64,000 nt of DNA, from the NCBI RefSeq assembly GCF_000027125.1, contig NC_017626.1, one strand, 5' to 3'. The position numbers and the translations under genes were made by a program. Position 1 is the first letter of the stretch. Each line of letters begins with the position of its first letter. The DNA is from Escherichia coli 042. GTDB lineage: Bacteria > Pseudomonadota > Gammaproteobacteria > Enterobacterales > Enterobacteriaceae. Positions 47,982 through 52,795 of the stretch are shown one piece after another. Under the pieces are notes generated by a model. That model did no database searches, had not been told where the DNA came from, and worked only from the letters and a program-made list of their open reading frames with translations.

Positions 47982-48743
47982 TCAAATAGCTAAAGCATTC
48001 ATCGTGTTGCCCTTATTCATACCCGTGTGCCTTTGACAACGGTACTCCTTAGAAACTCTCTTTGGACTGTTGCCAAAATGTTTGCGGAACGCATAAATAA
48101 AATAAGATGTACTCGCATAACCACATTGTTCGGCAATTTTATTGACTGAACCTTCTACGCGTATCAAATTTTTTGCGTGCTGCATTCTGGCATCTAAAAG
48201 AATCTGTGAGAATGTCGTTTGCTCTTGCTTTAGTTTTTTCTTCAACAGGCTTTCACTAATGTACAGGCAGTCACAAATATCTTTCAGCTTCCATGGGTGC
48301 GCCAGCTTCATGTTGACAATATTTCTAACTTTCCCAGAAACGGATAGCACACCGTTAGTTAATAGTGTAATGAAACCTTTGCATGCGGCAAAAATAGACA
48401 GGCAAGAAAAAAGCAAAAGTTCTGAAAAATTATGATGATTGCGTTCTTCCGAGTTGAGATAAGCAATCATTTCATTAAGCAATCCAGTCGGTACATTTGA
48501 AGCACGTAAAAACTTCGCAGGAACAGGCACCGTCACTGTCTGGATGTTAGTGCATTGTAGATATTTTTTAATGGTATTTTCATTAAATCCGATTTCTTTG
48601 AAATGCCGCTCATAAGGTTCAAAATGCGTACGAACAGCGTTATCTACCATCAGGATCTCGCCGTCAGAGAAGGCGTAATCTTTATCTAAAATGTTAGCGT
48701 TGAAGGCATGATGAATAAATATAACAGAACAAACGAGCGACAT
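47982..48743 (-). CDS. ydeO: AraC-family acid-resistance regulator
   Basis: 253 aa with C-terminal AraC HTH (…QCGYASTSYFIYAFRKHFGNSPKR); downstream of safA. Confidence 0.9.
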   Translation of the reverse strand: MSLVCSVIFIHHAFNANILDKDYAFSDGEILMVDNAVRTHFEPYERHFKEIGFNENTIKKYLQCTNIQTVTVPVPAKFLRASNVPTGLLNEMIAYLNSEERNHHNFSELLLFSCLSIFAACKGFITLLTNGVLSVSGKVRNIVNMKLAHPWKLKDICDCLYISESLLKKKLKQEQTTFSQILLDARMQHAKNLIRVEGSVNKIAEQCGYASTSYFIYAFRKHFGNSPKRVSKEYRCQRHTGMNKGNTMNALAI

Positions 48744-48817: not shown

Positions 48818-49015
48818 TCAGTCTTGCAAACTATTGATAATGAAATGTGTAAGATCCCTTGCAATGCGACCCATTTCTGAAATACCCAGCTGATCAATTG
48901 CCGAAAACATGGCTATCAACGTAAGTGTCAGTAATAAGACAACCACAATTACAGACATGATTTCTTTATAGTTGTCTCTTTGCGTGATTTTGTTTTTCAC
49001 TGTGGTCGCATGCAT
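48818..49015 (-). CDS. safA: Small membrane protein linking EvgS/EvgA to PhoQ
   Basis: 65 aa, MHATTVKNKITQRDNYKEIMSVIVVVLLLTLTLIAMFSAIDQ, single TM helix. Confidence 0.85.
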   Translation of the reverse strand: MHATTVKNKITQRDNYKEIMSVIVVVLLLTLTLIAMFSAIDQLGISEMGRIARDLTHFIINSLQD

Positions 49016-49126
49016 TTCAAATATGTTTATTTAGCGGATAACGTTAAAAATCGTTAATCAGTATGCTTAATATAACAGGCTGGAGAATAGAGGAAATAGG
49101 ACTGGCGCTTCAGTACTGAGCGGAGT

Positions 49127-49142
49127 TTCTTACAGCTGTAGG
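49127..49142. promoter_or_regulatory. Candidate EvgA box upstream of safA
   Basis: TTCTTACAGCTGTAGG, an imperfect inverted repeat within a longer block shared with the ydeP upstream region; 112 bp upstream of the safA start. Confidence 0.5.
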
Positions 49143-49262
49143 CGGAGGTATATATCTTATAACGAGCAGTTTAATTTAGCACATGTGAGTAAATTGCGCG
49201 ACAATGGTCAATGAGGAATTCTTCTGCTGTGCGGATGACAGCAGAAGAAATGAGGAGGCGAA

Positions 49263-51542
49263 TTAATTTGATGGTTCTAATTCAACCGGAATACTTTTAT
49301 AGCCAGGAATGCCACTTAATGGATCGTGGTTATCAAGTGTTAGCATGTGATTCGATTCTGGAAAATAGGTCACCAGTGAGCGGTCAGCCATAGGGTAAAT
49401 GACCACTTTTAATCTATCCATGCGGCGTGAGCTTCGCTTACCGTCTGGCGTAAGCGCAATAAGATTAACTCTTTCGCCGTTTTTTACACGGCAAATTTTA
49501 GCTTGTTTAGCACTCATAAAGACCACATCTCGTTGACCGAATACCCCTCGATAGCGATCATCCATACCATAAATCGTCGTGTTGTACTGATCGTGACTGC
49601 GTACTGTCGCCATGACTAGCTTACTGTTAAACGCTGAAGAGGGATCTTCTAACAGCCCTTTACTGGTAATGAAATTAGCCTTACCTGACGGCGTCATCCA
49701 GCGCCTTTCAGCAGCTGCATTTATCAGGTGAAAACCACCGGGATGACGGATGCGCTGGTTATAGTCGGCGAACTCTGGCAGCACAGCTTCAATGTCATTG
49801 CGAATGCGATCATAATCTTCCACCAGATACTCCCAGGCTACCACGCTCTGGGGTAGTGCAGCCTGCGCGATTCCCGCGACCACTGCACACTCTGATTTCA
49901 GCATTACACCGGCGGGTTTTAACACGCCACGCGAGGCATGAATCATCGACATTGAATCCTCAACGGTTACCGCCTGCGCACCACTTTTTTGCATGTCAAT
50001 CTCGCTACGTCCCAGAACCGGCAGAATATAGCTATGCTGTGCGGTCAGCAGATGAGAGCGGTTAAGCTTAGTGGCTACGTGTACCGCCAAATCTAATTGC
50101 GTTAACGGTACAGCGCTCGCTTCCCGATCTGGCATTGCCAGTGCAAAGTTGCCCCCCATGCAGATCAATGCTCGAGCCTGCCCCGTACATATTGCTTGCA
50201 TGCTGGCAATTGCAGCATGTCCAGGTGCATGAGGTGGGGTGAAACCATAGCGCTCACCCAGGCGAGCCAGAAACTCTGCAGACGGTTTCTCGGTGATACC
50301 GACGGTTCGGTCGCCCTGTACATTAGAGTGACCACGTAGTGGGCAGATACCTGCACCAGGCTTGCCAATGTTACCTTTCATCAACAGCAGATTGACCAGT
50401 TGCTGTACGTTTTGGGTACCATGTTCGTGCTGAGTGATCCCCATTCCGTAACAGATAATGGTGCGTTCGGCAGCGGCATATGCATCAGCCAGTTCGGCGA
50501 TTTGGGTCTGACTTAGTCCAGAAATACGTTCGATATCTTTCCACTCGGAATTGAGAACGTCACGGCGTAGCTCGTCAAAGCCGACGGTATGCGTTTGAAT
50601 AAATTCGTCATCCAGCAATGAGGGCCGACCTGCGGCGCTTGCAGCATCATCGCGCTCAATTAACAGGCGCATCATCCCCTTGAGCAACGCCATATCGCCA
50701 CCAATGCGCACGTTATAGTAGGCACTGGCCAACTGAGTCTCAGAGTTCGTCAGCATTTCAAACGGATTTTGCGGTGCGGTAAATCGCTCCAGGCCACGTT
50801 CCTGTAGAGGGTTGATGGCGATCATTTTCGCTCCCCGTTTCACTAAAGCGCGCAACGAAGTCAGCATGCGAGGGTGGTTTGTACCAGGGTTATGCCCAAT
50901 GCAAATGACTAAATCGCATTTCTCAAAGTCTTCCAGCAACACGGTGCCTTTACCCACACCGATACTCGCTGCCAAACCCACGCTGGTCGGTTCATGGCAC
51001 ATGTTGGAACAGTCGGGAAAGTTATTGCTCCCGTATTCACGGGCAAAAAGCTGATAAAGAAAGGCAGCTTCATTGGAAGTGCGCCCCGAAGTATAGAATT
51101 CAACCTGATTGGGATCACTATAGCTTTGAAGGCGTGCGCCTATTTCGTCGAAAGCTTGTTGCCAGCTTAATGGCTTGTAACAGTCGCTGACGGCATCATA
51201 TTTCAAAGGCTGAGTGAGACGCCCCGCAGCTTCAAGCTCGTGATCTCCCCAGGTAAGTAATGATTGAACCGTATTCTCAGCAAAGAAAGAGGCATTTACC
51301 TGCTTATCCGTGACTTCCCAGGCGATTGCTTTTGCGCCGTTTTCACAAATGTCGAATGACGCACTGTGCTTAGGATCTGGCCATGCACATCCAGGACAGT
51401 CAAAGCCCTCTGGCTTATTCATGTCAAACATGGCAATAACATCCTGGCGTATATCCATCTGCTTACGTACTGCATTCGCTACGGATTTAACAGCACCCCA
51501 ACCACCGGCAGCACCCTGGTAGGATTCAATTTTTTTCTTCAT
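49263..51542 (-). CDS. ydeP: Molybdopterin oxidoreductase family protein (FdhF-like), acid-resistance associated
   Basis: 759 aa, [20 protein letters not shown]; N-terminal Cys cluster (CPGCAW) and molybdopterin-binding domains. Confidence 0.9.
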
Positions 51543-51790
51543 CTGCTTATCCTGTGTGGAAATGAATTATTAGGATTTGTAATAGCGATGATGCACAGTA
51601 TATACAAAGGGATTATCGTCAATATGGATATATAAGAGTAGGGGACTACTCTCTATCTATTTTTAACCTATTATCGTTAAATAATAGAATGGTATAAATA
51701 CGATAAGTTAAGCATCATCTCTCATAGTGTTTAAATTAACATATTTTTCAATATAAAAAATAAGACTCTGGCTTCAATTGTGCGCGGATT

Positions 51791-51806
51791 TTCTTACAGG
51801 TGTAGG
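51791..51806. promoter_or_regulatory. Candidate EvgA box upstream of ydeP
   Basis: TTCTTACAGGTGTAGG, same motif as upstream of safA, with conserved flanks (GCGGAtTTTCTTACAGgTGTAGG). Confidence 0.5.
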
Positions 51807-51880
51807 ATAATAGCCTTCACAAAATAATTATCCGCGCAATTTCCGTGAATGGAGCGCATAGACTAAGATCAAAATCACAA

Positions 51881-52795
51881 TTATTCATAGATAAAAGTGA
51901 CACCAATGACTGACTGGACGGTTCCGGCTGAAACCTTGTTTCCTGTTTGTCCATAGGTTGCGCTTAAACCCAGAGGTACTTTGCTTTTATTTACTGTCCC
52001 CAGGGAGACATTTTCTCCCGTAGCCAGTATTTTTCCATTACGCATCAGAGAGACACCCACTCCCGATGCTTTTGTCGCATCAGGTGCTGTGTTAGCAAAC
52101 ACTTGTCGGGCACTGTCAGTGGTGGCACCCGAAAGATAAAATGAGAGCTTTTGTTCGCTTGAGCAATATACGCCAAGGGGTATTTCTGCGCTTCCAGGAA
52201 AGTCCGGGAGATTCACGGTGACATTACGACTATCAACAGTGCAGCCGCCTGTTGGCATAACAACACTGTTATTTGAAATAATATTCCACGTAAAATTACG
52301 CGGATTTCCGCTTCCTAACGTGGCAATTTTATACATATGAATACGGGCAATGACTTCCCCCGCTTTTATGACAACTCCACCGGCTGCACCAACTGGGGTA
52401 ATATAGAGTTTTAACGGTAATGGCATCGGTGTCTTATCACCAATATCCAATACGTTGGTATTTGTCGTCAACGGGAAGGGGTAGGTTACATTATTCCAGT
52501 ACAGCGATCCTTTATATGACTGTAGGGAGCCTGCGAAAGCTGAGCCTTGTACCAGGTTTATATGATCGGTGTCGTACCAGCCGCCGTAATCATTCCAGCA
52601 ACTTATATGCTGAGACAAGTCTACAACCAGATTCTGGCCCGGTTGTATTACAGGGTCGAGATTAACATAAACAGAGGTTGTACCTGCTCCAATACTTGAC
52701 CCGCCATCGACATTACAACTGAAGGCAAAAACTTTGCCTGCCATTAATAGAAGATAAATACCGAACAGGACCTTTATACTGAATGTTTTACCCAT
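51881..52795 (-). CDS. ydeQ: Fimbrial tip adhesin (FimH-like, two-domain)
   Basis: 304 aa with signal peptide [24 protein letters not shown]; last gene of the chaperone-usher operon. Confidence 0.85.

Follow-up and report, generated by a model that had tools for sequence, protein, structure and literature searches.

The response regulator EvgA is a member of the NarL/FixJ family with a LuxR-type helix-turn-helix, and its phosphorylated dimer binds an 18-bp inverted repeat, with one half-site taken by each monomer. The repeat reportedly follows the consensus TTCYTACA-NN-TGTARGAA, and it is said to be present at ydeP, b1500/safA, emrK, yfdX, frc, and yegR. The signal begins with the sensing of mild acidity by EvgS, which leads to the phosphorylation of EvgA and the activation of the target promoters, as described in excerpts of PMC9496106. 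It has also been stated that ydeP is activated directly by EvgA and that an EvgA site is present in all the directly regulated genes (excerpts of PMC4283999, PMC9496106, and PMC11210196), that the safA-ydeO promoter is bound directly by EvgA (excerpts of PMC9496106, citing Itou 2009), and that the transcription of both ydeP and ydeO is activated by EvgA (excerpts of PMC11210196). A full-text literature search for an EvgA consensus, footprint, or transcription start found no paper in which the motif is printed, the primary motif papers being outside its coverage.

The closest described system outside this regulon is that of the BvgA promoters of Bordetella (fha, ptx), where the half-site, TTTCCTA, closely resembles that of EvgA. 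Like the EvgA promoters, the BvgA promoters combine a high-affinity inverted repeat located well upstream with a poor -35 element. The two regulators are homologous, and EvgS/EvgA were named after BvgS/BvgA (excerpts of PMC9496106). Class I activation from a position near -72.5, as performed, for example, by CRP, offers a second parallel, given that the activator is likewise centred some 70–75 bp upstream, with a fixed helical phasing.

The nearest relatives of the sites described here are the EvgA boxes of E. coli K-12, TTCTTACAGCTGTAGGCA (safA) and TTCTTACAGGTGTAGGCT (ydeP), which are found at the same genes and in the same position as those of the window (i.e., the whole 64-kb stretch of DNA that was analysed), and which share an identical 16-bp core with them. 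The window is distinguished from K-12 by the two terminal bases at the distal end of each box and by a ydeP leader that is 5 nt longer, with nothing else that is essential being different.

Organization of the locus

The locus has the E. coli-type gene order, ydeO-safA-ydeP-ydeQ, with all the genes on the minus strand. A 4.5-kb query taken from it had matches in 5393 of the 5426 complete E. coli genomes, where the genes are annotated likewise, with a top identity of 98.7% (97.5% in the case of K-12). The genes and the paired motif are arranged as follows.

47982–48743, minus strand: ydeO, which encodes an AraC-type regulator and comes second in the safA-ydeO operon
48818–49015, minus strand: safA, 65-aa PhoQ connector
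49263–51542, minus strand: ydeP, 759-aa acid-resistance oxidoreductase
51881–52795, minus strand: ydeQ, open reading frame at the locus
49120–49142, plus strand: 23-mer GCGGAGTTTCTTACAGCTGTAGG upstream of safA, made up of 7 nt of pair-specific proximal flank and 16 nt of the EvgA box
51784–51806, plus strand: 23-mer GCGGATTTTCTTACAGGTGTAGG upstream of ydeP, exact match in the window
49127–49144: EvgA box of the safA-ydeO promoter, the 18-bp inverted repeat TTCTTACAGCTGTAGGCG, with 2 mismatches to TTCYTACANNTGTARGAA
51791–51808: EvgA box of the ydeP promoter, TTCTTACAGGTGTAGGAT, with 1 mismatch to TTCYTACANNTGTARGAA

The initial annotation of this DNA had quoted two near-identical 23-mers, described an imperfect inverted repeat within them, and assigned them to safA and ydeP, and these observations hold. 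Each quoted 23-mer was recovered from the window letter for letter, and the two differ from each other at 2 of their 23 positions. The repeat takes the form TTCTTACA-NN-TGTAGGnn, with a right arm that agrees with the complement, TGTAAGAA, at five of eight positions in the safA copy and six of eight in the ydeP copy. Given that the two genes are read from the minus strand, both motifs lie upstream of their genes, with a distance from the end of the box to the ATG of 111 nt for safA and 248 nt for ydeP. A search with the 23-mer, which had been proposed as a check, was run here within the 64 kb using the degenerate pattern, and returned only the safA and ydeP copies (two matches) at up to three mismatches, with no match in 100 dinucleotide-preserving shuffles.

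The EvgA box and its recurrence in the regulon

Each 23-mer holds 16 of the bases of the 18-bp inverted repeat TTCYTACA-NN-TGTARGAA, while the remaining part, GCGGA(G/T)T, is outside the EvgA box, and the other EvgA promoters carry unrelated bases at this point. The consensus was tested directly on the window and on approximately 55 kb of K-12 sequence around the EvgA-induced genes. In the 64-kb window, no further match was found at up to three mismatches beyond the safA and ydeP sites. In K-12, a box with no more than two mismatches was found upstream of safA, ydeP, emrK/evgA, frc, yfdX, and yegR, that is, of all the EvgA-induced genes checked. The number of mismatches to the consensus is two at emrK/evgA, where the box is located in the divergent intergenic region, zero at frc, and one at yegR, while yfdX has one box with a single mismatch and a second copy with three mismatches, 38 bp from the first. 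The validity of the consensus is based here on its recovery at the known K-12 targets. The half-sites of the K-12 safA box score 12.0 and 13.6 bits in the half-site matrix. One additional match, among the approximately 55 kb of K-12 sequence, is found inside the coding sequence of mdtE. At gadE, a gene frequently included among the EvgA targets, no box with up to four mismatches was found in the 800 bp upstream in K-12.

The boxes at PsafA and PydeP are real, functional, and already known EvgA sites, by means of which the acid-sensing phosphorelay EvgS/EvgA very probably controls ydeP and the safA-ydeO operon directly. The shared operator expected by the initial annotation does exist, then, in the form of an EvgA box at both promoters, although it is the site of an activator rather than an operator of the repressor type.

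It is highly improbable that the palindrome belongs instead to some other acid-network regulator, for which RcsB, GadE (with its GAD box), YdeO, and PhoP would be candidates. RcsB also belongs to the NarL family and has half-sites of the TAAGAA/TTCTTA type, but the half-sites found here appear to be arranged in the opposite manner, TTCTTACA-NN-TGTAAGAA in comparison with the TAAGAA-N-TTCTTA of the RcsB box. While several regulatory inputs do reach these promoters (excerpts of PMC11210196, among other sources), the promoters that bear the motif are exactly those of the EvgA-induced set, including the divergent region of evgA itself, and in the K-12 acid island (slp to mdtF, 10 kb) the sole match with up to two mismatches is that in the mdtE coding sequence, rather than upstream of a GadE-dependent gene.

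Architecture of the two promoters

The core promoter elements and transcription starts predicted for the two genes are as follows.

49069–49077, minus strand: putative extended -10 of PsafA, TGTTATATT (TGnTATATT), the best -10 score of the region, 53–58 nt after the box
51733–51741, minus strand: putative extended -10 of PydeP, TGTTAATTT (TGnTAATTT), in the safA register, with the published 5' end of the K-12 leader 7–8 nt farther downstream
51725, minus strand: predicted ydeP transcription start, homologous to K-12 position -178, with a 183-nt leader in this strain
49061–49064, minus strand: predicted safA transcription start, based on the homology with the ydeP module and the distance from the -10, with a leader of approximately 46–49 nt

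The anchor of this scheme is the K-12 ydeP leader transcript of Romeo and colleagues, the 5' end of which is at -178 from the start codon, a position that is not called a mapped start in the excerpts of PMC11210196. It falls 66 nt downstream of the box and 8 nt downstream of the -10 hexamer. In both modules, the extended -10 is found at 50–58 nt after the box, with a box-to-element distance of 52 nt, and in six EvgA-induced K-12 promoters, aligned by their boxes, the sum of the -10 scores was highest at 53/54 nt after the box. A -35-like hexamer was not found 17 bp upstream of the extended -10 in either promoter, where the sequence is ATTTCC in safA and ATTTTT in ydeP. Counted from the predicted start, the box would reach from -83 to -66 and be centred at approximately -74.5, some 2 bp off the canonical phase of the class I activators.

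A generic promoter scan of ydeP prefers another arrangement, TTGAAG followed by 16 nt and TATATT, with the -10 hexamer 36–41 nt after the box; if this is the true ydeP promoter, the centre of the box would be near -57. We prefer TGnTAATTT as the -10 of ydeP, given that its register agrees both with that of the -10 elements in the five remaining EvgA promoters and with the published end of the leader.

Between the box and the -35 region, five independent promoters have the same base at each of five positions (rotation null, p = 0.0002), these being C9, A10, T26, C27, and T31 after the box, which correspond to C-57, A-56, T-40, C-39, and T-35. They are 20 and 42 bp from the matching bases of the promoter-distal half-site, and are thus on the same helical face. 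They may mark extra EvgA protomers, a contact with the alpha C-terminal domain, or some other feature. The BvgA promoters have extra dimers at a periodicity of approximately 22 bp down to the -35, whereas in the EvgA promoters only the invariant CA (-57/-56) and TC..T (-40 to -35) were seen. A scan with the half-site matrix found no secondary EvgA half-site downstream of the box with at least 4 bits, nor any of positive score. In the summed scan, the forward half-site does best at 3 and 25 nt past the box, at distances of 20 and 42 bp relative to the primary forward half-site, but with negative summed log-odds. As no secondary site of positive score is present downstream of the box, the multi-dimer variant of the BvgA type is unsupported here.

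A terminator-like hairpin at 49106–49122 (plus strand), which overlaps the flank of the motif, was considered and rejected, given that there is no plus-strand gene and that it corresponds to the CGCTCAGTACTGAAGCG palindrome in the promoter module.

A shared 100-bp promoter segment

The 23-mers are the best-conserved end of a 100-base segment that is shared by the two promoters, and which was delimited by blastn in each of them.

49043–49142, minus strand: safA copy of the shared promoter module, from the core of the box through the -10 to approximately +19
51707–51806, minus strand: ydeP copy of the shared promoter module

The two copies have 68 identities in 100 positions (68%), with no gaps (E = 2e-13 in the pairwise comparison and 1.5e-11 against the whole window), and are 2664 bp apart in direct orientation. 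The similarity is one-sided, that is, it starts in the box and runs toward each gene through the extended -10 to approximately +19. The claim that the conservation extends into the flanks is therefore correct for the gene-proximal (low-coordinate) side, where some 85 further bases align without gaps, and fails on the side distal to the box, where safA and ydeP are identical at only 9 of 40 positions. In the gene-proximal flank, 54 of 90 positions are identical, in comparison with 24 ± 4 in shuffles, and no other non-self 90-mer in the window matches as well.

The similarity of this pair is also well above that found in the rest of the regulon. Among six K-12 EvgA promoters, the pairwise ungapped identity on the gene side is 25–35 of 85 positions, in contrast with the 52/85 of safA and ydeP, while the comparisons with the non-gene side or with the distal yfdX box gave 15–26 identities. 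In the 61 of the 85 columns in which the other four EvgA promoters disagree, safA and ydeP are identical at 35 (57%). Constraints that operate on the regulon as a whole do not account for the identity of this pair. The simplest reading of these alignments, and the most likely one, is that one of the promoter modules is a local tandem copy of the other. A more complete version of this reading would have PsafA and PydeP as paralogues, derived from the tandem copying, in the lineage of E. coli, of a cassette of approximately 100 bp that extends from the EvgA box through the extended -10, with no -35, to around the nineteenth transcribed base. In this version, the CA (-57/-56) and the TCY..T (-40 to -35), which are kept by all the EvgA promoters on the helical face of the primary half-site, hint at additional contacts of EvgA or of the alpha C-terminal domain, as at the BvgA promoters; this version can be held only tentatively, at somewhat short of an even chance. 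If it is true, the E. coli-specific safA-ydeO operon (or ydeP) would have been brought into the EvgA regulon through the copying of a promoter, and not through the de novo evolution of a site. When a mobile or repetitive element was looked for, only the two copies of the module were found in the 64 kb.

Variation among strains and the origin of the similarity

Promoter alignments were made of the window, K-12, eight other E. coli strains chosen across the range of identity, and two E. coli-like contaminant contigs. Both copies of the module are present in every E. coli strain aligned. The core positions of the half-sites of the box have no variation (9–11 strains). In the safA box, the sole variable position is position 1, the outermost distal base, while the ydeP box varies only at position 2, at its distal end, and at positions 9 and 10 (11 strains), where the central NN is GG, AG, or GA on the plus strand, equivalent to CC, CT, or TC in the orientation of the gene. 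The combination of fixed half-sites and a variable centre would be the pattern expected of a palindrome bound by a dimer that makes no contact with the spacer. The proportion of polymorphic sites is 20–23% on the distal side of the box, in comparison with approximately 11% from the box to +19, and this value for the module is close to the 11–15% of the leaders.

These data bear on two further explanations of the repeat. According to the first, the repeat is a mere remnant of a duplication that has no present role in protein binding, which would fit the existence of two copies in direct orientation, 2.66 kb apart, within a longer homologous segment. This is scarcely credible, however, given that four other, non-homologous EvgA-induced promoters carry the palindrome at an equal distance from the -10, that the variation among the strains affects the spacer and the distal flank but leaves the half-sites unchanged, and that direct control by EvgA has been reported (excerpts of PMC4283999 and PMC9496106).

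The second explanation is that the 100-bp similarity arose by convergence, without common ancestry, under additional regulators of this pair, such as repression by YdeO, H-NS, or PhoP, or a special contact surface for EvgA or the RNA polymerase. Both promoters are reported to be repressed by YdeO, directly or indirectly, and safA by PhoP (excerpts of PMC11210196, among other sources), and some of the positions in fixed register are common to the six EvgA promoters, so that constraint certainly explains part of the similarity. An identity of 57% in the 61 columns that this pair does not have in common with the rest of the EvgA promoters, together with an alignment over 100 bp without a gap, would be a rare outcome of convergence, however, and the module, with approximately 11% of polymorphic sites, is not noticeably less variable than the leaders. 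As the module is about as polymorphic as the leaders, most of its positions are therefore not under strong constraint. Given this, convergence is unlikely as the source of the similarity, and the local copying of one promoter module is the preferred reading.

Proposed mechanism and significance

In the mechanism that we propose, a phosphorylated EvgA dimer would occupy the palindrome of each promoter. The core promoters alone would be nearly silent, given that they have no recognisable -35, which agrees with the very low basal activity reported in the excerpts of PMC4283999. When bound at approximately -74.5, phosphorylated EvgA would recruit the RNA polymerase and turn the promoter on. This recruitment might proceed through the alpha C-terminal domain, contacted from the upstream site in a class I-like manner, or, alternatively, through additional EvgA protomers of weak specificity occupying the stretch between the box and the -35, as at the BvgA promoters. 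The outputs are YdeP, SafA, with the subsequent activation of PhoQ, and YdeO, with the subsequent activation of gadE.

It is through these two sites that the acid signal of EvgS/EvgA enters two branches of E. coli acid resistance, one represented by YdeP and the other by SafA-PhoQ/PhoP together with YdeO-GadE. As they are well described, their confirmation adds no new biology. The ungapped 100-bp homology is a minor detail that is possibly unreported, and the same may hold for the strict spacing that the regulon keeps from the box to the -10 and for the positions without variation that lie between the box and the -35. Together with the extended -10 that dispenses with a -35, these details could aid the engineering of acid-inducible promoters, as well as the study of the acquisition of a regulon by a lineage-specific two-component system.

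Range of the promoters outside E. coli

A collection of genomes at the species level was scanned with GGANTTTCTTACAGNTGTAGG, and the matches were two E. coli-like contaminant contigs and one site in Desulfosporosinus, with no Escherichia genome among them. The Desulfosporosinus match is inside an open reading frame and was rejected as a chance occurrence.

The nearest orthologues of YdeP outside E. coli and Shigella are those of Edwardsiella (85–87%), an ENA contig (75%), Hafnia (71%), and Providencia (approximately 68%). At the ydeP orthologues of Edwardsiella, Hafnia, and the ENA contig, neither an EvgA box (up to four mismatches, in the 500 nt upstream) nor any similarity to the E. coli promoter was found, and in these three the neighbourhood of the gene differs from that of E. 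coli. The presence of YdeP orthologues without a box outside Escherichia agrees with the reported confinement of evgAS and safA-ydeO to E. coli and Shigella (excerpts of PMC9496106).

Inferred transcript ends around ydeP and safA

ydeP has an unusually long inferred leader, whose length is polymorphic between strains through a 5-nt indel, the K-12 leader having 178 nt. The gene is followed, starting 14 nt past its stop codon, by a perfect hairpin that stands out in RNA folding (dG -17.5 kcal/mol, z = -4.1) and is trailed by only a weak U-tract. The features concerned are:

51543-51725, minus strand: inferred ydeP leader, about 183 nt
51656-51688, inside the leader: imperfect 16-nt inverted repeat
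49219-49249, past the ydeP stop codon: 12-bp hairpin, TTCTTCTGCTGT / ACAGCAGAAGAA, with a 7-nt loop

This hairpin is a putative terminator or attenuator of ydeP, which may partly shield PsafA from transcription running on out of ydeP. In some papers, the three genes are described as a ydeP-safA-ydeO operon.

A separate observation concerns the sequence TGATTAacgatTTTTAA (49044-49060, minus strand), located directly downstream of the inferred safA start, which resembles the PhoP direct-repeat box TGTTTA-5 nt-TGTTTA at 9 of 12 positions by eye. The ydeP copy of the promoter module shared with safA is degenerate at the equivalent position. Repression of safA by PhoP has been reported, and a putative PhoP box at this site would fit it.

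EvgA-regulated promoters in K-12

Among the K-12 stretches around EvgA-induced genes, the promoters of ydeP (stretch L001) and yegR (L004) have TTTAAACACTA..GAGAG in common, near the inferred start region, about 56-76 nt past their boxes and with a 5-nt offset. The frc and yfdX promoters both contain CTCTCTGATT, and its distance from the box is identical in the two. Given these common stretches, promoter-to-promoter homology may therefore exist elsewhere in the EvgA regulon, beyond the safA/ydeP pair.

In the 800 bp upstream of K-12 gadE, no EvgA box with up to four mismatches was found. Two boxes lie 38 bp apart at yfdX (L002, 16501-16556), an extra forward half-site, TTCTTACTA, occurs 9 nt upstream of the emrK box (L002, 5514-5540), and the mdtE coding sequence holds an EvgA-box-like sequence with two mismatches (L003, 7887-7904).

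Distribution and variants of the region

Among the best 120 matches listed for YdeP (gene at 49263-51542), the nearest orthologue not from E. coli/Shigella belongs to Edwardsiella (87%), and no Salmonella, Citrobacter or Klebsiella protein is named. The distribution of YdeP is patchy, which suggests that ydeP was acquired horizontally.

In strain N3, the complete genome closest to the window, ydeP is annotated as frameshifted, and strain T2 carries an IS903B-family insertion inside the matched ydeP-safA region. Finally, two contigs are E. coli contamination of their bins: JARKOR010000108.1 (13 kb, in a MAG of 'Candidatus Nanosynbacter'), which is 97.9% identical to the window, and USHE01000194.1 (uncultured bacterium UMGS1713), which is 97.5% identical to it.
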